From the NCBI GenBank assembly GCA_001275005.1, contig JWZX01003190.1, forward strand, positions 1 to 37,325: a stretch of 37,325 nucleotides of DNA, in the 5' to 3' direction. Position 1 is the first letter of the stretch; each line of letters opens with the position of its first letter. The notes beneath the pieces are model-generated. The model made no database searches and was not told where the DNA came from. It saw only the letters and a list, made by a program, of their open reading frames with translations. Shown one piece after another: positions 1,746 to 37,074 of this stretch. Source of the stretch: Chrysochromulina tobinii (taxonomy: Eukaryota). Made by a program: the position numbers and the translations under genes.

Positions 1746-3386
1746 CTAGCTGGTTGAGGCTCCTTCGCGCCCACGACGACGCGCCTCCTCCAGCAGGCTG
1801 CACGGCCGGCCCGCAAGACCCTCCTCGATAGTGCGCTCAACATGGCGCCTCAGATCCGAGGGGAGCGCCTCGATGCCTTCACGCTCATGGCGCGCTGCCT
1901 CCTTGACGGTGACGAAGAGCACATTGGACACGTCCGCGGGGCACCGCTCATCGAAGCGGCACAGGCAGAAGACCGGGCGCGTCGGGTCGAGTAGGCGCGT
2001 GCCACTGAGCGCCGAACGGCTGCGGAAGATGTCGTTGACGACCAGCGCGACCTCATGGTAGGTGAGAGGCACCTCGCTCGCAGGTCGCTGCTTCTCCTTG
2101 AGCTCCCTTTTTAGGAAGGCGCGGTACAATCGCGTTTGGAAGCCGGCCGACATGGATGGGACAGCACGCGGCGAGGGCACCACCGGGTTGCCCGCGAGGA
2201 CGCTCAGCGAGTGCGCGGCCAGCGCGGCACCCATCGCGGCCGGTAGCGGAGGCAGCACGGGCATCACACGCACTCGGAAGCTCGCTTGAGAGCCCAGCTC
2301 GTTTGCCGTGGCCCCCGAAGGCAGAGGGAGCAATCCGACCTGTGAATGGGGCGAGGAGGGGCGTCATCAGCTCGTCATCAGCTCGTCATCAGCTCGTCAT
2401 CAGCTCGTCATCAAAGTACCATCAGACGCAATCAGCAGGAGGTATCCCACCTGCTGAGGCTCCGACGAGTACACCACAGGCACACGATGGCAGAGCTCAT
2501 CCCACCAACGCTCCGGTGACAGCGCCAACGGCTCGGTGGCAAGGGCTTTGCCATCGCTGCTGCTACATCCTTCCTCCTCGCTGCCGCCGCGCTTTTCGTC
2601 GTCGTCGTCGCCGCCGACGCCGACGCCGCCACCGCCCTCGTCGTCGCCGCCGCCTCCACCGCCCTCGTCGCCGCCGCCGCCTCCACCGCCCTCGTCGCCG
2701 CCGCCGCCGCTCGCCACTGGCGCCGTGGTGGGCGCCTCGTCGTCGGTGCCATCGACGCGCTGCTTCTTGAGCCGTTTGAGCAGCGAGGCCGCGATGGGGT
2801 CGTTGAATACCTCCGACAGCCGGCCTACGTGGAAGGCGCAGCAGTCGCCTTTGCCGCCAGCGCCGAGCGCACACAACACGGGAAGGCCCTCGCGCACACA
2901 ATAGCCGAGCAGTGCCGCCTTCGTGGCGAGGTCGTCGATGCAGTCGACGACGAGCGCCGGCTCACCCGCGAGAAGGCGCGGAGCTGCGGCCGCGTCAAAG
3001 AGTGCGACGATCGCCTCGATCTGCGCTGACGGTGCCACACGTAGCATCTGCTCTCGCAGCGCCACCACCTTGGGCGTGCCCACGTCTGCGCGCACGGCGG
3101 TGGCGTTCCGGTTGAGTGATGAGAGTGTCACCTGGTCAAAGTCGATCAGGCGCAGCCGCCTCACGCCGCCGCGCAGGAGCAGGTTCGCTGTGTGGCTACC
3201 GACGCCGCCGAGGCCGATGATGATGACCAGCGGACCGATGGCGCTGCCGCCGCCCGAAGGGATCGTTGCGCTGGCGACAGAGAGCAGCGTCGCCGCACGT
3301 TTGCGGCTTAGCTCCGTCCAGACCGCGAAGACCGCGTAGGCCACAGTTGCGACGGACGCCACGGTGATCGGGAAAGCCGCGTGCAT
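1746..3386 (-). CDS. ThiF/E1-like tRNA threonylcarbamoyladenosine dehydratase (TcdA/TCD1-2-like), 2 exons (3386-2451, 2339-1746)
   Basis: IIIGLGGVGSH nucleotide-binding motif, LIDFDQVTLSSLNR, VVDCIDD, VVYSSE and FRVRVMP; N-terminal hydrophobic anchor as in fungal TCD proteins; a GT-AG intron at 2450-2340 joins the two ORFs in frame (QQ|VGLLPLP). Confidence 0.85.
2340..2450 (-). other. Repeat-filled intron (111 nt)
   Basis: Minus strand GTGGGA...CACAG; tandem CTGATGACGAG units and TGATTGC; junctions CAG|GTGGGAT and CAG|GTCGGAT are near-identical. Confidence 0.85.
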
Positions 3387-3564
3387 GACTCCGCGAAAAG
3401 GCGTGAACTTCCTAACAAGTCGCACACACATTTGGCTGTGGCACGCATTTAAGATATGATTTTCCGAGGGTCATTTGCGATGTGTGCTTGAGACGGCGGC
3501 CGCCGCGTCCTGGGGACCTGCCTGGGCAGCTGGCGTGAATGCTGCTCTGCTGCGTGCTGCGACC

Positions 3565-5259
3565 ATGCTGATCTTCCGAAAGGGAACACCATGGAGGCTA
3601 ATGTTCCGGAGGGTGGGCTCGGCTATCCTCCCAGCGATGCCCGAGGGCTTATTGGCCGCCATGTGGACTCTCCTGATCGAGTTGATCGTGCCCCGCTCGT
3701 ACATGGACACGCTGCTGCAGCACCCTAATGCATACCATACGTTTGCATTCTTGGCGCTGACGTTGCTCGTGTTCCGCACCAACGTCGCGTACAATCGCTT
3801 TTGGGAGTGCTGCACCTCGGTCACCGTTATGGGAGGCATGTGGGGCGACGCGTTCACCATGGCCATCACGATGGACGAGCTCATCAACACCAACAAGCGT
3901 GAGTACGGCGAGGCGGGCGCTGCGTGGCTCGAGAAGCGGCGGCGGCACCAGATGCTCATGGCCCGCCGCTACTCACTCTGCCACGCGCTCGCACTGCAGT
4001 ACCTGCGCCGCGATGACTGCCTAAAAAACCTGGTCCCGAGCGACGGGCGCCAACCGAAAGTGCCAATGGGGGCTGGGGCGTTTGGCGGCATGGAGCAGCC
4101 GACGAGCCGTGCGGACCCCGAGTGGCAGCAGCTCGAGGTGCTCGGTGGCCTCACCGAGTCTGAGATCCGTTCGCTCGAGAGTAGCCCCGACCGCGTGGGG
4201 TACATCTTCTCGCAGATCATGCACCTGAACGCACAGCGGCGCTGCGACGGCGGCCTGGGCACGGACCCGCCAGTGCTCTCGCGCTACTGGTCGTGTCTCT
4301 CGTCCGGCATGTCGGGCATGCGGCAGGCGCGCAAGGTCGAGGACATCCCCTTCCCGTGGCCGTACACGCAGGCCGTCGCCCTCTGTACCCACTTGTTCGC
4401 CCTCACCTTCCCGCTCGTTCTCGCACACTTTGCCAACTGCGGCTCCGTTTCATGCGCCAGCCCCAACTATTGGATGGGCCCGTTCCTCGCGTTCGTCACG
4501 GTGACCTCCTTCGCGGCCCTTGACCAGGTCGCCGTCGCCCTCGAGGATCCCTTTGTCCACCCGCCCAACGACTTGCCTGCGAACGCGCTTCAGGCGGCCT
4601 TCAACAACCGCCTGAACACCATCCTCGACGCCGTTCGTCGGCCGGCGGATGCTCTCACAACGAACTCGCAACTAGTGTGTGACTTAGACCGTCTCCCCGA
4701 GGGCGACGAGAAGTACTGGGGCGAGTTCGCCGAGCTCGAGGCGACAGACGTGAAGCTTGCGACGGTCAACTTCCTTGGACAGTGGCGCAAGTACACGACG
4801 AAGCACGAGAGGCCAGCCCATACTTTTCGTTCGAAGAGTATGTCGAACATTGCCACGCCAGGGCTGGTCATGCTCTCGTCGGGCCGGGGGAAGCTCAAGA
4901 CGCGCCTCCTGGAAGTCGAGGCTGTCGGGGGTTTCAAGAAATCCTCGTCGGATCCAAACTTGACGAGGCTCGAGGACGGAATCGCCGCCCCCCCCCCAGG
5001 CGCCCCCCCCCCAGGCCGCGGACCCCTTGGCGGCAAACTGGGTAAATTGACGTCGACCTCTCTCGATTTCCTTCCCCAATTTCCGAAGGCGCAGCCCACT
5101 AGCCCAAACAGTTCTAGCACCATCGGCGACACCCTGAATATCTTTAAGCGCTCCCGGGCACTCGGCACGGATCCAACCCTGAGTGATACGGATAGCCCCA
5201 TCGGGACGCCAACGAAGGGGTCCCCTTCTGCTTCGCCCAGCGTGCCCAGACGTGCCTAG
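3565..5259 (+). CDS. Bestrophin-like (UPF0187/bestrophin family) anion channel
   Basis: LLVFRTNVAYNRFWE, PFPWPY and LEDPF...NDLP motifs; hydrophobic segments; low-complexity C-terminal tail; first ATG at 3565. Confidence 0.88.
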   Translation: MLIFRKGTPWRLMFRRVGSAILPAMPEGLLAAMWTLLIELIVPRSYMDTLLQHPNAYHTFAFLALTLLVFRTNVAYNRFWECCTSVTVMGGMWGDAFTMAITMDELINTNKREYGEAGAAWLEKRRRHQMLMARRYSLCHALALQYLRRDDCLKNLVPSDGRQPKVPMGAGAFGGMEQPTSRADPEWQQLEVLGGLTESEIRSLESSPDRVGYIFSQIMHLNAQRRCDGGLGTDPPVLSRYWSCLSSGMSGMRQARKVEDIPFPWPYTQAVALCTHLFALTFPLVLAHFANCGSVSCASPNYWMGPFLAFVTVTSFAALDQVAVALEDPFVHPPNDLPANALQAAFNNRLNTILDAVRRPADALTTNSQLVCDLDRLPEGDEKYWGEFAELEATDVKLATVNFLGQWRKYTTKHERPAHTFRSKSMSNIATPGLVMLSSGRGKLKTRLLEVEAVGGFKKSSSDPNLTRLEDGIAAPPPGAPPPGRGPLGGKLGKLTSTSLDFLPQFPKAQPTSPNSSSTIGDTLNIFKRSRALGTDPTLSDTDSPIGTPTKGSPSASPSVPRRA

Positions 5260-5842
5260 GCATGCGTGGTGTGGCACGCGGAGGGTCCACTCGCGGGTGG
5301 ACCCGTGCCGAGTGCCCTGGAGCGCTTCGAGATGTTTAGGGACGTCGGCTCGTAGGTCGTACTCTGTCACGTATCCTGGGCATAGGCTATAGCGCATGGC
5401 TTTTGTTACATGTTATGAGTTTCGGAGAGTTGCGGCGCGCGGCGACCATTACTACTGTCACATGTAGTACGGTGTAACACACGCGACCGCTGCGCGTCGG
5501 TGATCGGACGCTTTATATTTATCGTCAATCGTGAACGGACGCACCAGCACACGGAAGACGTGCGATGTACGATGAGCACGCAGCGGTGTGATGAGAAGGG
5601 TTTTACATGATGTATACATGGTCGCCTTCTCTGCAGCTCTCACGATCATGCGACAACAACTTTCTACAATTAATTGCCACGTCATTCGTCATGCTGTGAA
5701 GTCGCGATTTCATGTGGGTTCCACCCTTCGCCCATCCCACTCGTGTACCGCCTCTCACGGTCGGCGATTTGAGCATCGTGTGTGCCACGACAGATCAGAC
5801 GCGACTGAGCGCGCTACTAGGTCCCATCGCGTGAAGGCGTGC

Positions 5843-6565
5843 ATGCGCTTGCTGCTGCTCGTGGCTTGCTGCGCATGCGCCGCCGCACGCCCGCGGACGG
5901 GCCGCGATTGGAGCAAGCTGACGGACAAGGACTGGGACCGCATCGAAGACGAGTGGTCAACACCTGAGGAGAAGGAGGAGTACGAGTTCAAGCCGCCGAA
6001 GCCAGGGAAGGGCGTCGACATTGATGCGCTTCAAAAGGCGATGGAGAAGCAGGAAAAACTGAAGAAGAAAGGAAAGCTCAAGAAGGGTGAGCAGAGCCCT
6101 GAGGTCAAGAAGATGCTTGCTCAGACGCAGCAGACCTCGGGGCCAGCGATGCTGTTTGCCACGCTCGACTACGAGGGCTGCTGCAAGAAGAATGAGACGG
6201 AGAAGATTGGCACGCGGTGGGCCACGCTCATGGCCTCGGCGGGTATGGCCGTACAGACGTACGTAATCGACGAGAACATGGTGCTCTACTCCACGCAGGC
6301 GGGCGGGTTCGTCAACGAGATCATCGAGTACGTCACGCAGCAGACGGAGTGCGTCTTCGTCGAGTTCAACAGCCAGCAGACGCCCGGCCCGGCCAAAACG
6401 CCAGAGTGGATCGCCAAAGACGAGGCGAGGAAGGCGGAAATGAAGGCAACGCAAGAGAAGAAGAAGGCCGAGGAGGAGGCCGTCAAGAAGGCCGAGGAGA
6501 AGCTGAAAGCGAAGAAGAAGAAGAAGGGCAAGCAAAGGAAGGCCAATGATAAGGAAGAGATGTAA
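5843..6565 (+). CDS. MESD/Boca-like ER chaperone
   Basis: Signal peptide MRLLLLVACCACAAA; DWDRIEDEW segment; core GPAMLFATL...ETEKIGTRW...QTYVIDENMVLY...EIIEYVTQQTECVFVEFNSQQTPG resembles the MESD core from memory; Lys-rich tail ending KEEM (KDEL-like). Confidence 0.72.
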   Translation: MRLLLLVACCACAAARPRTGRDWSKLTDKDWDRIEDEWSTPEEKEEYEFKPPKPGKGVDIDALQKAMEKQEKLKKKGKLKKGEQSPEVKKMLAQTQQTSGPAMLFATLDYEGCCKKNETEKIGTRWATLMASAGMAVQTYVIDENMVLYSTQAGGFVNEIIEYVTQQTECVFVEFNSQQTPGPAKTPEWIAKDEARKAEMKATQEKKKAEEEAVKKAEEKLKAKKKKKGKQRKANDKEEM

Positions 6566-8315: not shown

Positions 8316-8896
8316 CTCGTCTCTCGACGGGTTGCAGCGAAAAAAAGTTTGGGACTCTCAACTTCCGCAACAGACATGGACATGTTTAACCCAAGTTCGT
8401 ATGTGCAACAATATGCGATAATCCCGCGCTGCAACCACCTGCATGGTACATGTTGTGAGGTATAAACGATTTTTTAAACGAAAGCTCTGAGCACCCTCTG
8501 TGCTGAGCTCATCAAACCGGGGTGACGGGGGGTTTCCTATCGTTTTGAGGGGGGGGGTCCTATCAGAGACGTATCCTGATGTATCCTGATGTATCCTGCA
8601 TGTATCCTGATTGTATCTTGATGTGTCCCGTAAAGAAATGTTGAAAGTAACAGCAAGTCAGATTTAAATTTTGAGATACATCAGGATACACTCAAGATAC
8701 ATGTACATGTACGTGTATCCTTCACGATACATGCAGGATACATCACGATACATAAGGATACGTATCTGATAGGACCCCCCCCAAAACGATAGGAAACCAC
8801 CCCGCACCCCATGAAACAGGAGTACCGGCTTCTAGCCGCCATTTATTCCGCCGCCACCGCCCTTGCGCCACCGCCCCCGCATCCATATCGACCGCG
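8012..8896 (+). repeat. Dispersed direct repeat (two copies, 8012-8036 and 8872-8896)
   Basis: Exact 25-mer CGCCCCCGCATCCATATCGACCGCG in both; each copy is followed by CGCCATCGCC, a T-tract and CAAAA(A)CAGCA-AAACA-AAAAAA. Confidence 0.75.
8519..8810. mobile_element. MITE / non-autonomous DNA transposon with ~90-nt TIRs
   Basis: Left end GGGGTGACGGGGGGTTTCCTATCGTTTTG...GGTCCTATCAGA is mirrored by right end TCTGATAGGACC...CAAAACGATAGGAAACCACCCCGCACCCC; subterminal GTATCCTGAT/ATCAGGATAC decamers; flanks ATCAAACC and ATGAAACA look like a degenerate 8-bp TSD; no ORF. Confidence 0.85.
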
Positions 8897-10837: not shown

Positions 10838-13800
10838 ATGGTGCCGCTGAGCCGCACTTCGCTTCGCCTCATAGGCCTCATCGTGCTCGGAGTCGTGTGC
10901 CATGTGCTCCTGCGCCACCACGCGGCTGAGCTCGCCAAGAGCCGGCGACTACCGCCGAAGCAGCAGCAGGCGAAGCAGGAGCTCGCCCAGGCAGCATCGC
11001 ACGTGCCCAGTACCAGTACCACAGCTGTCGGCAGCGAGGCCTGTCGCACGGGAGCGCCGTTGAGTGTGCTCCTCATCCACGAGCACCACCTCAAGCCGAT
11101 CGGCTCCGACGTTCGGCTGCTCGGGGTCGTCGCGCAGGTGCGACGGGTGCCACGGAGTGCTTGCGCATGCTGCTAAGTGCATGCTGATTACATGCTGATG
11201 ATTTCCTGCTGATTGCATGCTGATGGGTGCCTGCCGCAGCTGCGCGGCCTAGGCCACACTGTCTCGCTGCTTTTCCGTGGCAAGACACCCACTGAGCAGC
11301 GCTCGCCGCCGACGCACGAGCTCGCCGCGCTCCTTGGCGCGGCGCGGAGCAGCGAGACGGAGCTCTCGCCTACAGAGGCCCCGCCGCACGTGCCGTCGAT
11401 CTACGAGTACTCCGAGCTCGATTCGCTCGCGACGCTGGCGCGGCAGGGGTGGTTTGACGTGGTGCTGTGCCCGCTCTGGTTTTGGCGCGACCCGATGGCC
11501 TCGGCCGCCGAGCTTCTGCTCCCGACTCTCGCGCTCCACGCGCCCGAGGGCCGACGGCCCTTCATCGCTGTCCTGTCGGACGACGCACACTCGTATAAGG
11601 CCTCGATGATGGCGGAGTGGGAAACTTCGGTGGAGCGCAAGGCATTTCATCAGGGCAAGGCGCACTCCCTGCCACCCCGCCAGCGCGCCGTGTACGAGCT
11701 CGCCGACGCCGTCGTCCACATCTCTGCGGCTGATTCCGCACTCGAGCGCAGTGCGTTCAACGCGTCGTGTCGCCACTGGCACGTGCTCAAGATGTCGCCG
11801 CGCGGCGTGCGGCTAATGAATACGTCGAGCTCGCGCCAGCTCGCTCAGCGGCGCATGCTCGAACAGGGGCCACAGCCGATACCGCAGGGGCAGCAAGGGC
11901 AGCAAGGGCAGGAGCAGGAGCAGGAGCAGCAGCAGCAGCAGAAGGGCACGGGGCAGCGCAGGCTGCTTCAGCTCAACGAGGGCGAGGAGGCGCCACAGGC
12001 GGAGGCACAGCAGTCTCAGGGCGAGCAGCAGCCGCCGTTACAAGGCTCGGAGGCACAGGAAGAGGTGGGGCGCGATGGGGGACTCCCGGCTGATCCTGCT
12101 GATGAGGCGAATGAGGCGAATGAGGCGAATGAGGCGAATGAGGGGCGCGATGGGGGACTCCCTGCTGACGAGGTGCAAGAGGCTTACACTCAGAGCGATG
12201 AGGCGGCGCAAGGCGATGCTGAGGCTAAGAGCAACGAGGCAGCGCAGGGCGGTCAGGAATCCTCTTTTGAGGAGGTCGAGCAAGCCGACAAGGCGCAAGG
12301 CAAGGAGGCATCACGAGGACAGGCGTCACAACGCGAGAAGCAGCAGCAGCAGAAGGAGGAGGAGGTGGAGGAGGTGGAGGAGGTAGAGGAGGAGGCAGAG
12401 GAAGAGGTGGTTGTGGATCAGGAACCTCCACAAGCGCAGTCACAGCAGGAGGATGCAACCCCTGAGCTGCAGGAGGGGGAGACGGCGGTGCCGGCGGCAC
12501 TGGAGGCGCGGGAGGCGGCGGCGATGGAGCAGACGGCGGCAAAGGAGCAGACGGCGGCAAAGGAAGAGATAGAGGCGAAGGGGGAGACGGTGATGAAGGA
12601 GGCGCCGGAGAAGGTGCCGGAGGAGGCGCCGAAGGAGGCGCCGGAGGAGGCGCCGAAGGAGGCGCCGGAGGAGGCGCCGGAGGAGGCGCCGGAGCTTGCG
12701 CAGGGCGAGCAGCACCCCTCAGACGAAGATGAAGATCATCATCAGCAGCAGGCGCAGGAGGGGGAGGGCCGGGCGGCAGAGGCGGAGGCGCCCGAGCCGC
12801 CATCGGAGCCACCATCGGAGCCGGAGCAGCAGCAGCCTGTACAGCAGCCCGTACAGCAGCCCGTACAGCAGCCTGCGCAGCATTCGGCTGACGATGATGA
12901 GGGCATCATTCACACCAAGAACACCGATGAGTCGTCCTCCACGCCGTCACCCTCGTTGCCGCCCCCGAGCGCATCGCGGACTGCAGAGATGGCACCCTCC
13001 CAAATTAGGAAGGATGATGTGGTCCAAATTAGGAATGCAGCGGCAACGGCGTCCGCAGCGGCAGCAGCCAGCAAGGGCGCGCTGGCCGGCGCCGTCGCGA
13101 GCGGCCTCGAGGGCGCGCTGACCGGCGCCGTCGCGAGCGGCCTCGTCTTCCCGCCCTCGAGGATCGGCTTCATGGGCAACGGCATCACGCCAACGAACCA
13201 TCTTTCTATCGAGTGGTTCCTGAGCGAGGTGTGGCCCGCGCTCAGGACGGCACTACCGAGCGTGCGGCTGCGGCTCGTCGGCTATGCGCCCGATGACCGC
13301 CCGAAGAGGCAGCAGGGCAAGCCGTGCGACGCGCTCAGCTCGCCCGTACGCTGCGGCTGGGCGTGGCGCACCTCGCTGGCGGGGCACGAGGCGGCAGGTG
13401 GCGTGGATGAGCTCGGCTTCATCTCAGATGCGGAGATGGTCGAAGAGCTCCTTAGCTGGCGTGCGATGATCGTGCCGATCCTACGCTCGACCGGCGTGAA
13501 CACCAAGCTGCTGCCTGGCCTCCAGCTTGGCGTCCCCATCGTCCTCACGAGCGTCTCGGCGTCGCCACTCGGCATCCCGACTGACGACTCCGTCGCGCTG
13601 CTCGCCGACGACGCGCCCACGTTCGTGCGCCAGCTGCGTCGGTTGCACGAGCACCCTTTGGAGGCACTCCGATTGGCCGCCTCGGCGCGCCGCCATTGGG
13701 AGCGGCTACTGGATGAGGATCGATCCGCGTCTGATCTCGCGCCGCTGCTGCAGCTGGGGTGCGACGTGCTGCAGCACGTCCCTGAAAGCGAGCGCCCCTT

Positions 13801-19409: not shown

Positions 19410-20863
19410 ATGATCGCGATGCTCATCAACTGTGTAGCGGATAAGACCAAGGCCCACAGCGTTGCCATCATCTCGGTCGTCTTTTCGCCCGATGGCACGA
19501 AGATCGTGTCGGGATCGATTGATGGGACGATCAAAGTCTGGGATTTTGGTGCGCCGCGGAGCCTCGAATCGCCCCTCCTTGGCGAAGACTGACGCCATTT
19601 GGCTTGCCTGGCAGACAAACTGGAGCTGTTGAGCGAGAAGACAAACGCCCACAGCGACTGCATCAACTCGGTGGCGTTTTCCCCTGACGGCACCAAGATT
19701 GTGTCTGGATCGTGGGACAAGACGATCAAAGTCTGGGAATCTGGTGCGCCGGAGCCTCGAATCGCCCCTCCTTGGCCAAAACTGACACCTGCTGGCTTGT
19801 CTGGCAGGCAAGCTGGAGTTTCTGAGCGAGAAGACCAACGCCCACAGCAGCTACGTCATGTCGGTGGCGTTTTCCCCGGACAGGACCAAGATCGTGTCTG
19901 GATCGGCTGACGGGACGATCAAAGTCTGGGATTCGGGTGCGCTGCAGCCCTCATATCACCCCTCCTTTTGGCTAAAACTGACGCTTGATGGCTTGCCTGG
20001 CAGACAAGCTGGAGATGCTGAGCGAGAAGACGAACGCCCACAGCCACTGGGTCATGTCGGTGGCGTTTTCCCCTGACGGGACCAAGATTGTGTCGGGATC
20101 GCGCGACGGGACGATCAAAGTCTGGGATTCAGGTGCGCCGCGAGCTCAAAATCGCCCCTCTCCTTGGCCAAAACTGATGCATGTTGGATTGTCTGGCAGC
20201 CAAACTGGAGCAGCTGAGCGAGAAGACGAATGCCCACAGCCAACACCTCACGTCGGTCGCGTTTTCCCCACACGGGACCAAGATTGTCTCGGGATCGGGC
20301 GACAAGACTATCAAAGTCTGGGATTTGGGTGCGCTGGAGCCCTCGAAATCGCCCCTCCTTGGCCAAAACTGACGCCTGCTGGCTTGTCTGGCAGGCAAAC
20401 TGGAGCTGCTGAGCGAGAAGACGAACGCCCACAGAAACTACATCGAGTCGGTCGCGTTTTCTCCGGACGGGACCAAGATTGTCTCGGGAGCGCACGACAA
20501 GACGATCAAAGTATGGGATTCAGGTGCGCCGCGAGCTCAAAATCGCCCCTCCTCGGCCAAATCTGACGCCTGCTGGCTTGTCTGGCAGACAAACTGGAGC
20601 TGCTGAGCGAGAAGACGGACGCCCACCACCACTACGTCAGGTCGGTGGCGTTTTCCCCGGACGGGACCAAGATTGTGTCTGGATCGGACGACGGGACGAT
20701 CAAAGTCTGGGATATGGTCAAGTGGTCTCGCAAAGATCATTTGATGTTCAATGATACCACCCAGCGATTTGTCTTGCTGCTGCTGTGGATGAAAAAATGC
20801 AGTATGAAGTTTCCGGATGATGTGCTAGATCTACTCATCGAAGCTTGCTTGCAAAGCAGGTGA
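19410..20863 (+). CDS. Seven-repeat WD40 protein, one repeat per exon (19410-19548, 19615-19743, 19808-19936, 20004-20132, 20200-20328, 20395-20523, 20589-20863), 352 aa
   Basis: Repeat consensus [12 protein letters not shown]....[22 protein letters not shown]; six phase-1 GT-AG introns of 64-67 nt; spliced length 1059 nt is in frame; a pyrimidine tract plus CAG at 19408 suggests a further upstream exon. Confidence 0.9.
19450..20713 (+). repeat. Tandem exon+intron array, ~193-196-nt period
   Basis: Both the exons and the introns (GTGCGC...AATCGCCCCTCCTTGGCCAAAACTGACG...GGCTTGTCTGGCAG) are repeated with high similarity. Confidence 0.92.
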
Positions 20864-21246
20864 GAGGTGTGGGGTGACGGCGACTGTGGATGTGTCGCAT
20901 CCAATCTGATCCACACGGCTTCGCCGTGTCTAGAGAGTCAATGAGCAGTCGAATGATATTGACTCGATATTGTTGACTTATATCGTATGGAAACCAACGC
21001 CGCTCCCGCTGCCCGGCCGGTGCCGGTATCTCGGACTCGGTGAGTCGGTGTGTCGCGGTTACCACCGTTACCTATGTTGAGAAAGGGTCAGTTGAATCGA
21101 CACACAAGGTACCGACCAGCCACTACCAAACGAAACACAGGACAGACGGGCGCTGTCACCGCGGTCGCGTCGCTCGGTAACTACACCTAACATTCACAGC
21201 TACAACTATAAATGTACGCCGTCAAAGGTGTGAACCCAATTTCCAA

Positions 21247-23441
21247 ATGGAGACGAGTGCGACGTCGCCCTCGAACGCGGTCGCGATGATGACGCAGCAG
21301 GCGGAGGAGCAGTGGCGTCGCGCCGGTGGCCATGTGCTCCCGCCATTCGCACCGATTGCGTGCGCGAGCCGTCGAGCATTTGCGCTCCTGCAGGCGGCTG
21401 CAGCGCTCGACCAGGAGTGCGCACGGCTTCGACAGGAGCTGTGCGAGCTCAACACTGGTGAGGACGCAACGCGCCGCGTGCGCGCGTGCGTCTCGCCAAC
21501 GTCAAAAGCCGGCGCGGCCGCACAGCAGGAGATGGACGATGAGTCCGACGGCAGCGACCTGCAGGGCTCGCTCGTCGCCGCCAATGTGCGGCCCGGGAAG
21601 CCCTTGGTGCTGCTGTCCGCGCGGGACGGGCTCGAGCACCGAGCGCCCGACGGCTCGCTGCGACTGATCGCCGCCGACATGCTCTCCGAGCGAGAGCGCG
21701 AGCAGCTGCTCGCTGGCGGCTTGGTCGCCATGGCCGGCGCCTTCAGCCGCTGCGGCCAGACTACCCTCGGTATCTCCCCGGCTCTCGCGGCGCGTGTGCT
21801 CGCAACGACGGCGTCGGCGTCGGCCGCCTCGGGCGCAGACGGCACCGCAGGCGCTGCGGCCGCGCTCTCCTCCACCGCTATGGCGGGCGCGGACCTTTCA
21901 GGGACGGTGCCGTTGCTCTACCGCGTCGTCGAGCGCGCGCGCCGTCGGGTGGCCGCTGCGTTCGGTGCCGACCTGGCGTCGCTTCGCGTGAGCGACGCCA
22001 CGTTCACACGGCTGCAGCCGGTCAGCACGCCCGGTGCAGGCGGCGCACGCACACGCAAGCCAGGCAGCGCGGCGCGCTCCAGCAGCACCAGCAGCGCGGG
22101 CCACCATGGCAACGATGGCAGCGCTGGCGAGGACGGTGGAGGCGCTTGCACCTGCAGCGAGCACGACGACGTCGTCGACGAGGACGAGCTGCTGGCATGA
22201 GGCCACCGCCGCCTGGTGCTCTCGACGTGGGTCTGCTGCGGCACGATCAGTTCTGCTACTGGCGCGCACACATCGATCAAGTGAGCGCGTCTGAGGACCT
22301 CTGAGGACCTCTGATGACCTCTGATGACCTCTGATGACCTCTGATGACCTCTGATGGCGCGCACACATCGATCAAGTGAGCGCGTCTGAGGACCTCTGAT
22401 GACCTCGGATGACCTCTGATGACCGCTGATGACCGCTGATGACCGCTGGTGACCGCTGATGATCAGGTGAGCGTCGCGGAGTATGAGTACTCGGCACTCC
22501 TCTACCTCACGCGCTATGGTTCGGCCGCGCCCACGGAAGAGGGCGGCACTGGCGCCACTGCCGGCGGCGCCGCTGCCGGCGGCGCCGCTGCCGCCCCAGT
22601 CGGCGATTTTGAGGGCGGGCGGCTCGTCTTCCACGACTTGGACGCCGATCGGGTGGTGCTGCCCGAGCCTGGCGTGCTGGTCGCCTTCGAGTCTGGCGCG
22701 CCCAACCTGCATGCTGTCCAGCGCGTGACGCGCGGCAGCCGCTTCGCGCTCACGATGTGGTTCACAAGCAAGGCAGAGATGCCCGGCGCGGCGGTGGACC
22801 CGACGCACGCGGCGATGCAGCAGTGGGCAGCGGCCCTGCCAGATCCTCGTGTCGATGCCCCGTCCCCCATCACGCCACCGCTCACGGCGGCGCCATCAGA
22901 GGTCATCAGCGGTCATCAGCGGACATCAGTGCTCGCGACAGCGCCGCCGCCGCCTTTGCCGCCGCTGCCAGCGCCACCCTCCTCCAGGCTGCCCTCACGC
23001 GAAGAATCGCTCGTCTCGGCGGCCATCTGTTCTCTACCCGCAAACGATCCGCTCAATCGAGCGCTCGTCATCGCCAACGCCGCGGGCGGCCATCAGCTGG
23101 GTGCCATCCTCGAAAGAGCATTAGGCATCCCTGCTGCTCTAGCATTTGCGACGCCTCGCCCGTCCCCAGGCCAGCCACCGCCGCCGCTGCGGCTGGTGGA
23201 CGGCGTCGGCGGTGCATTGCTTGCGAGCCGCGTCGGCGCGCTCGACGCGCTTCAGACGACGCTGCTGCGGGCTCGGGCCGAGAGGGCAGCTCAGCAGCGC
23301 GCGAAACGGCCCACGCCCACGCAGGCCGTCCCCGGCCTGCAGTCACCGCCTCCAGACCCGCTGCCAGCCCCGCCGGTGGGCGCAGATGCGCCTGCGCCGG
23401 CCAAAAGCGGCGACGATGCCTTCTCCGTGTTCGACTTTTAG
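21247..23441 (+). CDS. 2OG-Fe(II) oxygenase, OGFOD3/prolyl-hydroxylase-like; one intron (22281-22466) and an apparent frame disruption near 22188
   Basis: DATFTRL; HDQFCYWRAHIDQ|VSVAEYEYSALLYL (HxD motif); DFEGGRLVF; NLHAVQRVTRGSRFALTMWF (distal His and Arg). Confidence 0.78.
22281..22466 (+). other. Repeat-filled intron (186 nt)
   Basis: GTGAGC...GATCAG; decamer array CTGA(T/G)GACC(T/G); internal copy of the exon end plus donor (22355-22399 = 22260-22304); junctions GATCAA|GTGAGCG and GATCAG|GTGAGCG. Confidence 0.85.
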
Positions 23442-23950: not shown

Positions 23951-25212
23951 TCAGTCCTGCACGATGACGTGAGGTTGGCTGTTTCCACCAGGCGCTGCTG
24001 AGGAGACGCCCCGTTTGGCCATGCGGAATTGATTGATCCAGTCCTCCGTCTCGTCGAGCGTCACTCCTTGTAACTCGAACTTCCGGTCGAGAGGGTTGGT
24101 GGGCACAAGATCGAAGCGGTTGGGCATGTCGCTGTCCGCCTCGCGGACGCGTACCACGTCATACTGCCTCACGTCAATGGGTGCGCCGTGGTTGACGGCC
24201 ACGCGCAGTCGCTCGGCCATCGGGCCCGTGGCAGCACCATAGTCCTCCCACGAGCGGAAGTAGAAAAGGTACGGGCCCTGTAGCACGCAGTACCGCCTTT
24301 GGAACTTGTCGGTGCCGAAGAAGGCGCCCTTCTCGCCCTTTTTGAAGAGCCAGCCCTCGTGCTTCGAGCCGCCCATGGGGGAAGGCTCGCGCGCCGCTTG
24401 CCGATCCAAAGCGTTCGGCCTCATCGCCTCCGCCTGTTCCTCGGCGAGGCGCGAGTACGGCGAGAGCGCTGTGGTGAGCACTCGCATGCAAGGCAGGCCA
24501 TCCGTGGCAATCAACGTACCTGTTCCTCGACGAGGCGTGAGTACGGGACCCCGCGAGCCGCGGCCTCGGCGACATTCGGTGGCGCGGCCTGTGCGTTACG
24601 GCTGCTCGGGTTGAGGCGCGCGAGGTCGACGACGGCGTTGCCGCCCGAGGCCGGGTCTGACACGCGCAGAGCGCCCGTCACCAGCTTGTCCTCGGGGATG
24701 TGGAAGATCTCAAACATCGACGTCATGCGCTTGTAGACCGAGAAGGCAAAGACTAGAAAGATGATCGTGACCATCGATGCGGCGGCACCCATCTTGATCC
24801 AGGCCATGAACACGGCCGCGCTCACGAGGAAGGCGAGCGAGAGCGCCGCCATCGCGAAGATGTGGATGCGGTGGTCGATCAGGATGTGCACGGCGCGCTC
24901 GAGCGAGCCGTGCGGGCCCTGCAGCGCGAGCCGGTGGCCGAAGACGCAGGCGAAGGAGGCGATGCAGAGCACGTAGAGCGAGAGCGCCATCGCCGACGCG
25001 CCGCACACAAAGTAGCACGCCGAGAGCAGCGGCGGCGTGCCCTCGGGGACCTCAAGCTCCACGAGGCTCTCAAAGGAGAAGCCGGCGACAACCGAGGCCT
25101 GCGTGGCCAGGTTGGTGTAGCGCTCGACGTGGAACTCAAGCTCGCGCTGGCGCAGCTCGAGCGCGTTGCGCTTGACGCCCGCGAGCAACACCTGCTTATC
25201 CGCCTGCAGCAT
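23951..25212 (-). CDS. Orai-like four-TM protein fused to a C-terminal PH domain; 2 exons (25212-24520, 24433-23951), 391 aa
   Basis: TM1 QASVVAGFSFESLVEL parallels Orai TM1 SALLSGFAMVAMVEV; four hydrophobic helices; PH domain HEGWLFKKG...FQRRYCVLQGPYLFYF...RKFELQG...TEDWINQF; phase-0 GT-AG intron. Confidence 0.72.
24434..24519 (-). other. Intron (86 nt) whose 3' end duplicates the upstream exon end
   Basis: Minus strand GTACGTTGATTGCC...GCATGCGAGTGCTCACCA...GAACAG; 24434-24460 matches 24520-24546 at 25 of 27 nt. Confidence 0.85.
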
Positions 25213-25289
25213 CGATCACACGACTTCCGCGGAATCGCGCACGCACAAACCCAAACTCGGGGGCTCCGTGTGTTTGACTATTAAAATGC

Positions 25290-30967: not shown

Positions 30968-33688
30968 ATGCGGCGCGGGAACCTGGCCTTGCTGTGCGGC
31001 CTGGCGCTCCTTGCCAGGCCGCTGTGCGCGCAGCAGCCTGTGCGTGGCGTGCCACGCTCAGAGTGGGCCGCGTACACCGGCCCCACATTTGCGTGCCGTG
31101 ACGGATCGGGCTCCTTGCCCATCGCGCAGCTGAACGATGACTACTGTGACTGCACCGATGGCTCGGATGAGCCGGGCACATCGGCATGCGCCAACACGGG
31201 CGGCCGCTTCTACTGCGCCAACAAGGGCTTCAAGCCCACTTACGTGCGCGCTGGCCTCGTGGGCGACGGCATCTGCGACTGCTGCGATGGAACCGACGAG
31301 TACGCGCGCCCGGGCGCGTGCACTGATACATGCATCCAGGCGGGCGAGGCGGCGCGCGCGGTGGCGGCGGCGACGCTGAGCAGCGTGCTCGGCGGGCTCC
31401 AAAAGGCGCAGCAGTGGGAGGCCGAGGCGGCCACCAACACTGGCAAGTGGGACAGCGAGATAGCGGCCCTCAAGGTGAGCCTCATTGAGAAGAAGGCAGC
31501 GGCCGACGCCATCCAGGTCGAGAAGGCGGCGGCCGAGCTGCGCGAGAGCGAGGCGCGCAAGGAGTTTCTCGAGAAGAAGGCGGCCGAGGAGGCCGCCAAG
31601 CAGGCGGAGGAGGAGGCCAAGGCGGCGACCGCCGCTGGCGCCGGCGCCGAGATGCCCTCGGGCGCCTCTGTAGAGGACTCCGTAGAGGACTCCGTAGCGG
31701 CAGCAGCAGCAGCAGCGGCAGCAGCAGAGGCAGCAGCAGAGGGCGTCCCTCCTGCGGGCGTCGAGAGGGGCCAACCGGCAGCGCCGGCCTCAGCCGAGGG
31801 CGTTGAGGCTGCCACCGCCGCCGCCGCAGCAGCAGCAGCAGCGGCAGCAGGAGGAGCAGCAGCAGAGGGCGCCGTGGCGAGCGACCATGATTTGTCGTAC
31901 CCCTCCGTCGACCATCATCCAGACGAGGTCGGCCCCGAGGGCGAGTACCCGGCGGATGACTACATACCGCCCGAGGGCGACGCGCCGTACGGCGACGACC
32001 CTCATTTGGAGGATGCCGAGTACCGCGCGCGCTACCGTGACGATTACGGCGAGGGTGGGGAGCGGTTCGGCGGCGAGGACGAGGACGAGCATCGGCCATG
32101 GAGCGAAGGAGACGACGAGCCTAATTTGGACGACGAGCCGGGCGACGACGAGGAGGGTCGAGGGAGGCGGGCGACGTGGCACGAGGAGGACGAGCACGAG
32201 GCGGCGCAGGCCACGGAGACGGACGAGGCGGCCCCGAAGGATCCAGGTATGTGCCACGCACGTGGCCTGCGCTGCGCGCGCCGGAGGTGCACGTGGCCTG
32301 CGCGTCCCTGGCCACCGCACACACATTCCCGCCTACTCCCTTCCCAGCACACATACACACGGCGGCGGCTGCCATGGCCGCGTCGCGTCGATGAGCGCGG
32401 CCGGCACGGCGCGGTCCTTTGACCGATTTGGCACGGCGAGGTCCTTCTGTGGAAGGTCCTTCTGGGGCGGCCGTCGAGGCGGCATGGGCGCTGTGGCCAG
32501 CTGGCAATCATCTGGCGGCCAGTTGGCGGCCAGTTGGCGGGGAGGGGCGGGGGCGCGCTGGGGGAGGGCGGCGGGATCCCCACGTCGGTCCCACGCCTAG
32601 CGCCCCCCGCCAGCGCACAGAGCGTGGGATGGGGTGGCCGCGGAGGGCTGTGTCGGACCCGACTGGTGACCTACCCGCGCCCTTACCCTCTGCGTGGCCG
32701 CCCCATCCCCGTGTGCCACAGGCAGCAGCAGCAGCAGCAGCAGCAGCATCAAGAGCGACAGTGGCCGCACTGGCAGCAGCAGCAGCAGTGGCAGCGTGTG
32801 GAGCGGCATAGGTCGAGTCATGACGGGCGCAGTGAGCTTCGGCCTCAATGGTTTCAGCTGGGTGGCCAACGGCGCCAGCTGGGTCGGCAGCCTCTTCAGC
32901 AGCAAGAAGAAGAGCGGCAAATCACCGAAGCGGCCGTTCGACGACTTCTCCACCCCAGGTCGACCCACCGGCTGTGGCCATCGGCTGCAACCACCGGCTG
33001 TGGCCATCGGCTGTAACCACCGGCTGTGGCCATCGGCTGTGGGGCCTTTCTTTCGCCCGATGGGCACACCTCCCTTGTTCGCCTGCCTCCCTTCCTGATG
33101 AGGAATGTATCGCCTCTGTCCAGTTGAGCTGACGCGCCTGTCTCGTGCCTGCACCCTCCCCGCGCCTCGCCCCTCGTCGTGTGCTCCTTTCCAGAGGCCG
33201 AGGCGCTGCGCACGAAGCATCGCGAGGCGATGGACGCCATTGACGATCTCGAGCGCCAGATGCGCGAGCTCGAGAGCAAGAAGACGGTCGACTATGGGCC
33301 CAACGGTCGCTTCGAGCCGCTCTCGCGTGAGTGCTATACCTCAGCGCTCGGGGGCGAGTGGAACTACGAGATCTGCCCCTTCAAGAACGCGGCCCAAAAG
33401 GGCCAATCGGGCGGTTCGACCACCATCGGCAATTGGGAAGGCTTCGCAGATGACTACAAGACGCTCAAGTTCACCAACGGCCAGCACTGCTGGAACGGCC
33501 CGGCTCGCTCCCTGACCGTGAGCCTCGAGTGCGGCGCTGAGAGTGAGGTTCTCTCAGTGGATGAGCCTGAGGTCTGCAAGTACACGATGCGCTTCCGCAC
33601 GCCCGCCGCGTGCACGCAGGCGCAGGCCGACGCGGCGAAGACCGAGCTGGACGCACTCGCGCCCGAACGCGTGCACGATGAGCTTTGA
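30968..33688 (+). CDS. PRKCSH: Glucosidase II beta subunit (PRKCSH/GTB1), exons 30968-32246, 32722-32958 (probable), 33195-33688
   Basis: Signal peptide; LNDDYCDCTDGSDEPGTSAC and DGICDCCDGTDE (LDLa-like); coiled-coil and acidic region; MRH domain YEICPF...FTNGQHCWNGPARS...EPEVCKY..TPAAC; C-terminal HDEL; phase-1 introns. Confidence 0.93.
32965..33040 (+). repeat. 26-nt tandem repeat x3 in PRKCSH intron
   Basis: CCACCGGCTGTGGCCATCGGCTG(C/T)AA at 32965, 32991 and 33017. Confidence 0.85.
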
Positions 33689-34262
33689 AGAAAGCTACTG
33701 TCCCGCAGTGCCATCGAGGACCCCACGCACGTACGTACACCCTGTGCCCAGTCTGTCGTCCCGCCACGGCTCGCACCTTTCTGGCCCGATGGAGATCTCG
33801 CATTTCCTTTACGTAGTACTTGCCCGGCATCTGACAATTATCTGACAATCATCTGGAAGTGTCCTTCTTGTCTCGCGGCGCGGGATCATCATCGGCGTTT
33901 CCGGATAGGCCGCTTAGGGCCCGATTTAGTGAGTTCGTGACTTCGTGTACACGCGGGTGGTAGCTGGTACGCCGGTCGCGTAGACGGAACCAACGGAACG
34001 AAGGATGGATACGTGGAATCGGAAATGATATACGCGCGCGGATTCATACGCCGTCCCGTCGGCGCTCGGAACACGCGACCGCGGGACGGGCGCAAACACA
34101 CACGTCGGGACGGGATGCCGACCCTCACCCTACTGTGTATCACCGCACGCGCCATGTCACGCCCCCGCCGGTCCGCGTGTGCGATCGTCACGCACGGCCG
34201 CACTCGACAGACGACCGAGACGTACGACACCCCACCACGTCGCAGACCACTCCCAAGAACAG

Positions 34263-34506
34263 TCATCTCCCCACAATCATCTCCCCACAATCATCTCCCC
34301 ACAGTCATTGCACCGCACGAAAGGAAGACGCAGAAGCCAGGCGCCGTAACTCTTGTAATCGTACCCCAGACAGCAGGAATGCCTCATAGACCACTGTAAT
34401 CGTACCCCAGGCAGCAGGAATGCCTCATACTGTGATAGCCCACTGCCATGCCGCTGCCCACTGTGATGCCGCTGCCCACTGTAATGCATCATAGACCACT
34501 GTAATC
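34263..34506. repeat. Compound tandem repeats in intergenic/3' region
   Basis: TCATCTCCCCACAA x3 (34263-34304); ~41-nt unit TGTAATCGTACCCCAG.CAGCAGGAATGCCTCATA x2 from 34354; CCCACTG..ATGCCGCTG units. Confidence 0.75.
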
Positions 34507-34527
34507 TCCCTCCCCATCCCACGCTCT

Positions 34528-34559
34528 GGGCCGCGCGACTCGTGGGAGTCGCGCGGCCC
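34528..34559. repeat. Perfect 14-bp GC-rich hairpin
   Basis: GGGCCGCGCGACTC-GTGG-GAGTCGCGCGGCCC. Confidence 0.85.
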
Positions 34560-34603
34560 TGCCGCGTCCTCCATCTCGCCCACATCTCACCCTCACGGCA
34601 TCC

Positions 34604-37074
34604 TCACAGCCTCCTCACGGCGACATCTTGGATGCGTGCGCGACGACGTGTGTGGCACGTGGTGGTGGGAAGGGGGAGCGGCCTCGAGAGCGCCAGGCAC
34701 TCAAGCGGCAGAACATAGTCCTCCTCGGGTAATCTCCGCCAATGCGAGATCGAGTCGAGCAGCCATCTCGCGTCGAGCAGTTTGAGCGTGGGCAACAGCT
34801 TATGCGCCTGCGCCTGCCGTAACAGCTGGCGCGTGCGCTCGCAGTGGACGGAGCCCTCAGCCAGCAAGGCAGGCGGCACGAGCATGTGGGTCGAGCTGGG
34901 GAGTACCTGAGGAGGGAGGCAATCAAGTGCAATTAGTGATCATCAGATGGCAATCAAGAGCATGTGGGTCGAGCTGGGGAGCACCTGATGAGGGAGGCAA
35001 TCAAGTGCAATTAGTGATCATCAGATGGCAATCAAGAGCATGTGGGTCGAGCTGGGGAGCACCTGATGAGGGAGGCAATCCGGTAATCAGCGATGAGGAA
35101 GCACTCAGAGGTCATCAGCGATGAGGAAGCACTCAGAGGTCATCAGAGGTCGAGCTGGGGCTGATGACGAAGCACTCAGAGGTCATCAGGGGTCGAGCTG
35201 GGGCGCACCTCGGCATACACCGCAGCCCCGCACCGACGCGCGAGCTGCACCTCCGGAGGCACTACCCCATCGACAAACAGCAGAGACGAGGGGCCGACGA
35301 AGGTACAGGCCACCCCAGAGAGGAGCCTGCCGCACTGCGCTAGCAGCAGCTCGCGAACGTCTGCCGCTGGGCGCACCGGCATGAACATCTCAGTGCTGCT
35401 CGTGCTGCTCGTGCCGCTCGTGCCGCTGCTGCCGCCTGCGCCGGTACTGCCGCTGCTCGTCGACGGAGCGGCTGCGGCTGCGGCACCAGCGGGAGGCCGT
35501 GGTGCCGCCACCTCCTCGTCGCCGCCGCCGGCCATTGTCATCGCCGTCGGCAAGCACAGCTCCGCGGGCGCCTCCGCTGGCGCCGCTGCTCGTGGCGGCG
35601 GAGGCGGCGCCGCCTCCGCCGCTGCTGTCGGCGCCGCCTCCGCCAATGCGGACGAAGCGGACGTGTAGGACGCGACTTCGTACGAGCCAAGCGACGGAAC
35701 TCGGTGGAGACGCGAGGGGGCGCTGTCCTGCGGAGCGCCGTCCTGGGCGCCCGTCCACGAGGCTTGTTGGGCTGTCGACGACGCCATGAGGGGCGAGCGT
35801 GGTGCTGAGCGGCCTCCCTGGCTGAGTGCATGCGTGCCTCCCTGGCTGAGTGCATGCGTGCGCAAGGCGCTGCCTTCGCGGGACGCACGCCGGCTTACAC
35901 CGTCCTGTGGAGCGCCGCACTGGGCGCCTGAGCACGGGGCTGTGTGGGCAGTCGACGGCGCCATGATGAGCGGCGAGCGTGGTACTGAGCGCGCTGGCTG
36001 CCCGCTGCCGTTGCCGTCCACACCACCAGCGACGCCGGCTCCGGCGCCGGCTCCTGTGGAACCTGGGGAACTCTCCGCGACCGGCGAGAGGGGCTGTGGG
36101 CAATGTCGAATCCCAGCGGTGGCATTGTGCAGTGAAAATGGGGAGAGGCCGCTGGATGGGCGCACGGTCAAGCTTCGTGGCGATCGCGGCGGCCTGTCAT
36201 AGCGCTCGAAGTACGCCCGATGGATGGCCTTCAGATGCTCCGCCACGCGGGGGAGCGACACGTCTGTGGGCGCGCCTACAAATCGATCGATCAGCACCAG
36301 ATTGGGCACGTGATTCGCCCACGCGATCGGCGAGTCGTCGACGATGAGGACGAGCTCGGGCACGCAAAGCAGCCGCTGGAGCGTCTTGGTGGTGCGGTCG
36401 AGCGCAGGGTGCCATGCAAGCACCTGCCCGGGCTTGAAGATCTCATGCTTCGGGTCGAGGTAGTGCAGCGCCTGCTGTACGTACCTGCGCAGGGAAGGCG
36501 AGGCGCCATGGTGAGCACTATGCCGGGAGGGCGCGGCGCCGTGGTGAGCACTATGCCGGGAGGTTGCGGCGCCATGGTGAGCAATGGTATGCTTCGGGTG
36601 CAGCGAGGGCGGCTTGATGCACGCACTCGCGCGAGCCCATCACCTGATGAGGGTGGCAATCAGCATGCACTCAAGGGCATTCCGCATAGTCCACGCACTC
36701 GCGCGAGCCCATAGTGTACAAATGGACGCAGAAGAGGTCGGCCATCTGTCCCAGGAACTCGTGGACACCCGGGCGCAGCCGCATCTCAAACTCCACATTC
36801 TGCACGCGCAGTGTCACCTCTGTCACCCCGCCTCCCTCGGCATCCGCCGCCGCGTCGCTGCCGCCGAAGCTCACTGAGGCCAGCCCAGCAGACGACTTGT
36901 CGGCGTTGTCGCGAGCGGAGGAGGGAGCGCCACTGCCTGCGGCAGGCGCCACACCGGGCGGCAACGGACCGATTGCGGACGGCGCCACCGGTCCCGGCTC
37001 AGGCACCGGTATGGAGCTATCACTGGTGCCCTCACTATTGCTACTACATGAGCGGCTGCCGAATGACGTGGCGG

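Follow-up and report, generated by a model that had tools for sequence, protein, structure and literature searches.

It has long been asked how new spliceosomal introns originate; mass gain is credited to transposons, and break repair is invoked for isolated single cases. Six introns in five genes of the freshwater alga Chrysochromulina tobinii raise the question again within a single window of 37,325 nucleotides (positions 1–37,325 of contig JWZX01003190.1, the whole stretch of DNA analyzed here). A preliminary description, made from the letters of the window, read them as variable mosaics of short repeats set between duplicated exon flanks, and suggested that iterative templated synthesis or break repair creates introns at AG|GT-like sites. 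Which process would leave introns of this kind? The first interpretation is partly supported by what follows.

Six introns and their junctions

All six introns have the GT..AG boundaries initially assigned to them. A single open frame is obtained after removal of 2340–2450, likewise of 11138–11239 and of 24434–24519, and when 34907–35208 and 36485–36698 are both removed (five introns with open frames). RNA contigs are joined over 24434–24519 in runs X14 and X19 and over 36485–36698 in runs X14, X16, and X19; the DNA run X11 has neither join, and its contig covers 36485–36698 with 0 differences. Splicing, which had been left for RNA to confirm, is thus borne out in these two introns. At 34907, two RNA contigs end (34904 and 34908) and the DNA contig continues to 34941, a weak hint of splicing; an RNA join at 22281 is absent among the matches listed. 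In runs X20 and X21, next to none of the family words are present.

Junction duplications had been claimed for all six and, against mixed donor and acceptor contexts, four are significant (P from 0.0007 to 0.031). The predicted intron 2340–2450 (minus strand) of a ThiF/TcdA-like gene has a 16-base junction duplication, 13 bases of which are identical (P = 0.031), around an 11-base repeat array (2362–2413). The predicted intron 22281–22466 (plus strand) of the 2OG-Fe(II) oxygenase gene, with CTGATGACCT arrays, has a duplication of 13 bases with 12 identical (P = 0.006); it contains a 95-base tandem unit, the exact 44-base start of which (22261–22304, repeated at 22356–22399) spans the exon end and the donor. 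In 24434–24519 (minus strand, PH-domain gene, RNA join; of the right-edge type defined below), a fixed donor-to-branch cassette (24471–24519, 46/49 as in other copies) is accompanied by a copy, at 24434–24460, of the exon end 24520–24546 (identity 25/27 to 26/28; P = 0.0007). The predicted left-edge-type intron 34907–35208 (minus strand) of an FCP1-like phosphatase gene ends in the acceptor module, and 35190–35208 is a copy of the next exon start (identity 17/19 to 19/21; P = 0.0014). Two more exact copies of 22 bases (35036–35057 and 34958–34979) lie there within a 78-base tandem.

The outer junctions of the two remaining introns are not significant alone, since P is 0.057 for 11138–11239 and 0.40 for 36485–36698. 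The former, predicted on the plus strand of a glycosyltransferase/WSC gene, contains CTGATTGCATG-type units and a junction duplication in which 9 of 10 bases agree. The latter, in the same phosphatase gene as 34907 (minus strand, RNA join), is composite, with an outer duplication identical at 9/12 bases: acceptor-module filler separates the exon end plus donor (36692–36712) from an exact internal copy of its 21 bases (36620–36640), and 33-base branch-module repeats follow (36492–36583). The 21-nucleotide copy reported earlier as an exon end does exist, but comprises 14 exon and 7 intron bases. In ten control introns (two of PRKCSH, six of WD40, and two of RPL38, with one RPL38 donor off by one base), no more than 4 bases are shared at the junctions, in agreement with the remark that the RPL38 and WD40 introns lack this architecture.

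A duplicated target around a shared insert

The family was surveyed in 703 kb of related DNA (mixed strains, with loci picked via one 19-base motif). By extrapolation, the family events number in the thousands. The layout in these sequences is X-E-X, where X is a copy of the adjoining exon, variable in length (9–55 bases in one measurement; 12–60 bases with a median of 25 in another), and E a piece of intron shared within the family. Of 173 terminal acceptors, 72 have the start of the next exon copied upstream (score of at least 10; permuted and offset controls, 0.6% each); the other 101 have no exon copy at that score. Without the acceptor motif as criterion, duplication is present at 75/235 repeat blocks (1.1% in controls), so that flank duplication greatly exceeds background across the genome-wide family, as anticipated.

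X+E can be excised exactly as a GT/GC–AG intron in 53 of the 75 duplications, against 212 of 750 for shifted lengths, with the splice site at the left edge of X (27 cases), at the right edge (11), or inside it (15); exact excision is impossible in 22. If an intron end is part of E, then E goes no further than the splice site. The two flanking reading frames concur in 21 of the 22 confidently coding cases, and the lengths modulo 3 are distributed as 25/19/22. With a median identity of 94% and perfect copies in 11 of 46, the duplications would be recent. At the left join, microhomology of at least 3 bases is found in 19 of 40 cases (21% simulated, P = 5e-5). This test took the innermost copy, which is frequently the product of a later tandem re-duplication, and slippage may therefore account for part of the microhomology. 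At the right join, at least 4 bases are shared in 14 of 31 cases (8.9% simulated, P = 1e-4). Such microhomology is what the break repair or templated synthesis initially suggested would leave.

An AG|GT-like target holds for some insertions but is not always needed, AG being found before the donor in just 25 of the 66 left-edge cases. The idea that the acceptor end pairs as a whole with the target was considered and rejected, exon 1 ends matching only at position −1 (G in 53/66) and weakly at −2 (A in 30/66). Improvement of the donor after insertion fared no better: mismatches are not commoner in the first six bases (19/276) than beyond (55/757).

A vocabulary in intron order

E draws on a vocabulary made, in intron order, of a donor cassette, 10–11-base CTGAT repeats, a branch module (CTCAC), and an acceptor module, and can hold its 3′ part, its 5′ part, or only its middle. 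Modules are near-identical between loci, but whole introns are not. The cassette formed by the first 49 bases of 24434–24519 has 10 matches in 7 sequences (mean identity 90%), the branch module 105 matches, and the acceptor module 378, which contradicts the notion of variable mosaics with no identical copies. Repeat units are spaced by 10 (949), 11 (197), or 12 (118) bases and occur in at least 30 variants, the commonest type averaging only 66% of a block; some inserts are unit arrays alone, with microhomology at the joins. Repeat number changes after insertion (an 80-base difference between strains is seen), and the few overlapping loci aligned between strains differ in repeat number and none in intron presence.

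The acceptor module ends in 7 bases whose reverse complement opens the commonest unit; this is the sole inverted relation, and no terminal inverted repeats are present at insert ends in the sequences inspected. Four family stretches (z from −0.33 to 0.81) and one control show no excess folding relative to shuffles. Rfam gives 0 matches at gathering score in the window, L014, and L067, a search that a decayed tRNA, 7SL, or 5S head would escape. Two motif scans of viral contigs gave 0 matches, and 5 isolated 19-base matches in prokaryotic genomes were judged to be chance.

The preference for gene-sense orientation noted at first is confirmed: among 188 repeat blocks, 162 are sense and 7 antisense, and random positions are symmetric. 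Of the antisense blocks, two clear ones lie in exons, keep the frame (81 and 51 bases), and have copies on either side. The one in the window (22880–22945, block 22894–22930, minus strand) comprises 51 bases in frame within the coding exon of the 2OG gene; its flanking copies are 15 bases long with 12 identical, a match that is weak alone (score 7.5).

Empty and shared sites in relatives

Relatives were compared at the protein level, the genomic origin of the proteins being deduced from read-through or contig size. In the NDUFS1 gene, four family intron sites are uninterrupted in 4/4 relatives (contigs of 6–19 kb), and 16/16 site-by-relative comparisons are empty, in a search that returned only proteins of at least 371 residues and therefore excluded relatives split at the sites. 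The 2340 intron is common to 8 close relatives and absent from P0042 and P0057; P0042 reads into a filler-type intron of its own about 50 codons on. The 24434 site is uninterrupted in P0001 and the 36485 site in P0159. Three paralog or repeat comparisons also give empty sites. Separately, the aligned part of the paralog pair L069/L079 and of the pairs L022/L029 and L024/L066 contains no family intron. The check in orthologs proposed at the outset thus yields mostly empty sites, but in P0166 the codon boundary of 34907 is occupied by an intron outside the family, and P0067 and P0157 exit the frame about 0–5 bases from the 2340 and 36485 sites (near-coincident introns). With one position common to a non-family intron of a relative, certain positions may be ancient or may have been targeted on two occasions. 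On the practical side, read-through of family introns contaminates predicted proteins.

Origin of the inserts

We propose, with a probability of roughly 0.55, that family introns arise when a break with staggered ends in a coding exon is filled by copying part of a family intron already present, selection likely retaining those that are spliced out exactly. The copied piece is likely to be excised intron RNA or its cDNA. Two nicks 10–55 bases apart would leave 3′ overhangs; one end would prime on the template via 2–6 bases of microhomology, copy part of it, and rejoin, with duplication of X. The product would hold, as in the sequences, a target X of 10–55 bases twice with E between, E being a 3′, 5′, or middle stretch of one intron-ordered vocabulary, and X would supply the missing splice signals (GT at the left edge, AG at the right edge, or AG|GT inside). 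Every new intron may serve in turn as template, and the family would therefore be self-feeding without terminal repeats. Later slippage, visible in part between strains, would alter the unit number and re-duplicate X+E.

That E ends at a splice site speaks for an RNA template, but selection alone would leave the same ends. The antisense inserts speak against a route strictly coupled to splicing; their exonic, in-frame location is what a selection filter predicts. Templating within the same transcript was also considered. Neighbors on the same strand share their unit type more often than expected (0.228 vs. 0.151, P = 0.0045, 51 groups), and the strand-specific signal was dropped because opposite-strand neighbors are equally alike (0.242 vs. 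0.150, P = 0.055, 16 groups); locality and strain are inseparable here. A more specific version can be offered only tentatively: a transposase-free, self-feeding intron maker, in which fragments of excised spliceosomal intron RNA would be copied by reverse transcription into staggered breaks in exons that are transcribed; the missing splice sites would come from the duplicated exon, and the products would become templates. It would have made thousands of the alga's introns and gone unnoticed in introner surveys because each whole intron differs from every other.

L1-type insertion leaves long duplications of variable length, an invariant 3′ end, and microhomology at the 5′ end, all of which are combined in the left-edge cases. 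A non-autonomous non-LTR retroelement (a SINE-like introner), which would insert through target-primed reverse transcription and leave the 3′ end fixed and the 5′ end truncated, is nonetheless improbable. That form is restricted to the 27 left-edge cases, whereas in the 11 right-edge cases the 5′ end is fixed and the 3′ end varies, and in the 15 inside cases neither end is present; the sequences inspected have no poly(A) tail, with repeats upstream of the fixed end, and the Rfam search of the window, L014, and L067 is negative. Non-LTR elements represent about 5% of classified introners in the accessible text of a 2025 survey (PMC12130899). Far less likely is a classical cut-and-paste DNA-transposon introner (MITE), later decayed, although the splice sites co-opted from the duplication in the 53 exactly excisable cases recall Polarella classes as excerpted (bioRxiv 10.1101/2020.10.14.339549), the near-identical cassette and the 7-base inverted relation would suit it, and introners with a 4-bp TSD are listed for a marine Chrysochromulina genome in the available part of PMC9860276. 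Published TSDs are, in the same partial texts, 3–9 bp (PMC9860276) and fixed per class (bioRxiv 10.1101/2020.10.14.339549), whereas X varies from 9 to 60 bases even in perfect copies; this length range largely refutes the DNA-transposon reading, and the joins have microhomology rather than clean ends, with no excess folding in the four family stretches.

The introns could instead occupy old positions, their sequence having been overwritten by tandem duplications across the junctions, by the growth of minisatellites, and by gene conversion from one intron to another. The non-family intron of P0166, the near-coincident introns of P0067 and P0157, repeated events at an existing junction in three of the six window introns, and the 80-base difference between strains point that way. 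We consider it unlikely all the same: presence and absence are reciprocal with P0042, the NDUFS1 sites are empty in all 16 site-by-relative comparisons, many introns are entirely X plus vocabulary with no remnant, exonic in-frame antisense inserts require de novo insertion, and shared cassettes would still require copying between loci. Iterative addition of 10–11-base units to broken ends by a telomerase-like enzyme with one short RNA template would account for the unit spacing and for the pure unit arrays with microhomology at their joins; a single template of this sort is quite unlikely, however, because of the many unit variants and of a repeat number still changing after insertion, and long non-repetitive cassettes travel with the units. 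An assembly artefact is barely credible: short tandem units do trouble assemblers, and a 2-base error is apparently present in the window at 21149–22289, but RNA joins skip the stretches, a second DNA run covers 35117–37000 without difference, and the layout recurs among contigs of many assemblies.

Relation to known systems

In tandem duplication of an AGGT-containing exon stretch, both splice sites come from the duplicated exon, as in our inside-type cases; unlike it, the present family has a foreign insert with branch-point motifs between the copies. This genomic duplication is a named route of intron gain in the accessible text of PMC3296678. Intron gain by double-strand-break repair (Daphnia, Drosophila, and Aspergillus; PMC3020277, PMC3296678), as far as those partial texts describe it, is similar in its direct repeats over splice sites, its capture at staggered ends, and its microhomology, but concerns short repeats, exogenous filler, and single cases, while the filler of the present family consists of intron sequence common to its members and provided with splice signals, in what would be, by extrapolation, thousands of instances. 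Introners (Polarella glacialis, Symbiodinium, Micromonas, Aureococcus, and a marine Chrysochromulina MAG), in the available portions of bioRxiv 10.1101/2020.10.14.339549, PMC9860276, and PMC12130899, also provide many related introns per genome, take one or both splice sites from a duplicated target, and are strongly gene-enriched. The present family differs from them in its 9–60-base variable duplication (vs. 3–9 and fixed), its lack of terminal inverted repeats, its insert (a variable piece of a modular vocabulary), and the microhomology at its joins. The sister stwintrons of the Hypoxylaceae and fungal introner-like elements are likewise related introns at new positions, and excised intron RNA was proposed as their break-repair filler; in the part available (PMC8469720), they have no duplication on insertion and carry 45–55-base inverted repeats.

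A literature search found no description of the family; subscription papers and some supplementary files, beyond its scope, may bear on novelty. The 2013 genome paper of Emiliania huxleyi reportedly mentions, in a remark on repeat content, 10–11-base tandem repeats in introns, thus of the same period, in the same compartment, and in a related alga; to our knowledge, they have not been linked to intron creation. An E. huxleyi introner family of 5 copies, with "10bp terminal direct repeats" and of unknown class, appears in the accessible part of PMC12130899; it may be related to the present family. The C. tobin genome paper mentions introns once in its main text (PMC4580454, available in part), and the 2025 survey gives C. 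tobinii 0 introner families (PMC12130899, same portion).

That survey, based on whole-intron similarity, scored as introner-free a species with such a family and, so far as its available text goes, this demonstrates a blind spot. The long variable duplications do not fit DNA-transposon introners. As the alga is cultured and has population data, empty alleles and donor–recipient pairs are directly searchable. The family unites the two sources to which intron gain is credited, with the footprints of break repair at genome scale and a shared modular insert.

Splicing and junction copies of the six introns

In the window (63.8% G+C), GT..AG ends are found in all six introns, 2340–2450 (ThiF), 11138–11239 (glycosyltransferase), 22281–22466 (2OG-Fe(II) oxygenase), 24434–24519 (PH-domain), and 34907–35208 and 36485–36698 (FCP1-like). 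Removing the introns yields a single frame in four genes (ThiF, glycosyltransferase, PH-domain, and FCP1-like). Independently of its intron, the 2OG gene is frameshifted further upstream (21247–22280), probably an assembly error because the contig of DNA run X11 differs there by two gaps and is two bases shorter. The RNA check of junctions proposed in the preliminary description gave a partial answer: RNA contigs are joined across 24434–24519 and 36485–36698, and also across a PRKCSH intron, with none of these three joins among the matches listed for X11.

Junction copies of the kind claimed are visible in all six introns (13/16, 9/10, 12/13, 26/28, 19/21, and 9/12 bases identical over aligned); measured against a null built by mixing real splice contexts, they exceed expectation at P<0.05 in four of the six and not in the other two. 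Ten control introns have at most 4 bases common to both junctions. In X11, summed contig depth, ∼40–60 in the background, peaks at 63,216 in the bin with the 22281 intron, with lesser peaks of 4,920 and 3,603 in the bins of two other introns; these peaks, which are not a copy number, show that many other contigs contain the same words.

Other repeats occur in the window. The PRKCSH intron (32959–33194) has its own 13-base tandem array, one unit shorter in RNA run X19, and no flank duplication on junction comparison. The WD40 gene (19482–20713) has a 196-base repeat in six copies with one intron per unit, and a paralogous region is found in locus L056. Short tandem arrays (11, 14, and 18 bases) occupy the interval separating the PRKCSH and phosphatase genes or the ends of these genes (33828–33855, 34259–34621), with several small indels in X19.

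Flank duplications in related loci

A scan with the 19-base acceptor module recovered at least 133 loci (783 kb) from cultures and lakes, probably with strains mixed. Removal of 15 overlapping loci and addition of the window gave 119 sequences (703,420 bases) with 408 acceptor-like sites, 173 of which were retained as terminal acceptors with sufficient flank. The next exon begins with GT in 134 and with GC in 22 of these. A copy of its start (score ≥10) is present upstream of 72/173 acceptors, against 0.6% with permuted exons and 0.6% with sequence 60 bases downstream. The outer exon copy begins with GT in 51/66 cases and GC in 4/66. Cutting at the copy preserves the reading frame in 21 of the 22 cases that are confidently coding; lengths modulo 3 are even across the 66.

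By a second, acceptor-independent route, 267 repeat blocks were collected (235 testable), with numerous unit variants and unit spacings of 10 (949), 11 (197), and 12 (118). Direct repeats (score ≥12) flank 75/235 blocks vs. 1.1% in the control, so that by both routes flank duplication lies well above the background frequency that would have spoken against the initial proposal. With X the duplicated exon stretch and E the insert between its copies, X+E is exactly excisable as GT/GC..AG in 53 of the 75 (control, 212/750), the cut falling at the left edge of X in 27, at the right edge in 11, and inside in 15; the other 22 fit none. Duplications are 12–60 bases long (median 25), the lower bound being imposed by the score threshold. 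Left-edge and right-edge types occur together in a CoA-transferase-like gene (L066, 1790–3165), where 1.4 kb contains no fewer than five family introns.

Modules, joins, and age

Three fixed modules occur in the inserts: a donor-to-branch cassette of 49 bases (10 matches averaging 90% identity across 7 sequences, the 24434 intron among them), a branch module of 24 bases (105 matches across 36 sequences), and, with 378 matches, the acceptor module, which is the motif used to select the loci. Their order is that of an intron, and arrays of units separate them; the 3′ part is found in left-edge introns, the 5′ part in right-edge introns, and the middle alone in inside introns. The mosaics first described are thus parts of one shared intron plan. 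Two inserts of 51 bases (L011, plus strand, 14953; L074, minus strand, 3533) contain the branch module only, between 26-base copies, with no sense GT/GC–AG cut; they may be translated or be portions of larger introns. A foldback or MITE-like element at window 8519–8810 (arms 36 and 61 bases long in inverted orientation, partly 10-base GTATCCTGAT units) has the 10-base period and CTGAT in common with the intron filler.

Among the 40 of 60 left-edge events whose insert begins in the shared vocabulary, exon copy and vocabulary overlap by ≥3 bases in 19, vs. 21% when clean joins are simulated (P=5e-5). For the right join, covered by 31 of the remaining 48 events, overlaps of ≥4 bases occur in 14, vs. 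8.9% (P=1e-4). Later slippage may account for part of this microhomology; in one intron, unit number varies among strains by 80 bases. Exon copies are perfect in 11/46 cases with a median identity of 94%, which points to insertion events that are recent and spread in age.

Orientation and genomic place

A dicodon model divides the sequences past the acceptor (n=173) into 121 sense-coding, 16 antisense, and 36 non-coding cases (calibration, in the same order: 60/5/8 of 73 known exons; 411/418/671 of 1500 random windows). The reported preference for gene-sense orientation holds in the repeat blocks (n=188), of which 162 run in sense and 7 in antisense, 16 are mixed, and 3 give no signal. On visual check only two antisense calls are genuine; both lie in frame within coding exons with flanking copies, and insertion therefore occurs, at least sometimes, in both orientations. 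One of the two (L022, minus strand, ∼10835) is an in-frame antisense filler of 81 bases that lies inside a long open frame, flanked by 16-base copies. Intergenic copies are rare. Far from the selecting motifs, there are 70 blocks across 283,591 bases; extrapolation to 59 Mb (PMC4580454) gives about 14,600 blocks, a figure that leans high, given that the loci are a selected set and a block is not an intron.

Intron sites in relatives

Positions were compared on relatives' proteins alone, with genomic origin inferred. Translation into the 2340 intron is common to eight close relatives (86–98%). The site is unbroken in P0057 and in P0042, which enters a filler-type intron ∼50 codons on, with the peptide encoded by the 11-base unit array of L018; P0067 loses frame two residues past the site. 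The 24434 site is unbroken in the PH-domain protein P0001, which has, where the window is uninterrupted, an in-frame repetitive insertion of ∼50 residues, apparently a read-through intron of different repeat vocabulary. At 36485, P0159 is unbroken and has a separate intron three codons further along; P0157 loses frame just ahead of the site. Four family introns in NDUFS1 of L020 are uninterrupted in 4/4 relatives (long contigs, 70–78% identity; only long proteins were searched, a bias), and paralog or internal-repeat comparisons are empty in 3/3, with a filter able to show only empty sites. Most of the sites compared are uninterrupted in relatives; at 34907, P0166 carries a non-family intron at the identical boundary. 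Most of the evidence points to gained positions, with some overwriting or some reuse of AG|GT sites.

Mechanism and relation to known families

The family introns combine an X-E-X layout, a modular E, splice sites supplied by X, microhomology, sense and exon bias, and ongoing slippage. A staggered break in an exon could start the process, microhomology would prime copying off a family intron already present, and products that splice exactly would be retained by selection. Intron RNA or its cDNA seems slightly likelier than DNA to be the template, because inserts end at splice sites and are seldom intergenic; the antisense cases and selection weaken this preference. Gene enrichment alone is no proof of an RNA route, since marine Chrysochromulina introners are reported as 98% genic.

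The outcome resembles that of introners and the footprint that of break-repair gain. However, the introns lack the fixed short TSD and inverted repeats of introners (published TSDs are 3–9 bp, PMC9860276; TSD length is fixed per class in Polarella, bioRxiv 10.1101/2020.10.14.339549) and the unrelated filler of break-repair gain. A 2025 introner survey gives zero families for C. tobinii, and our literature search, with most subscription papers outside its reach, found no account of this intron family. The family is real and widespread, and is accounted for by no described family.
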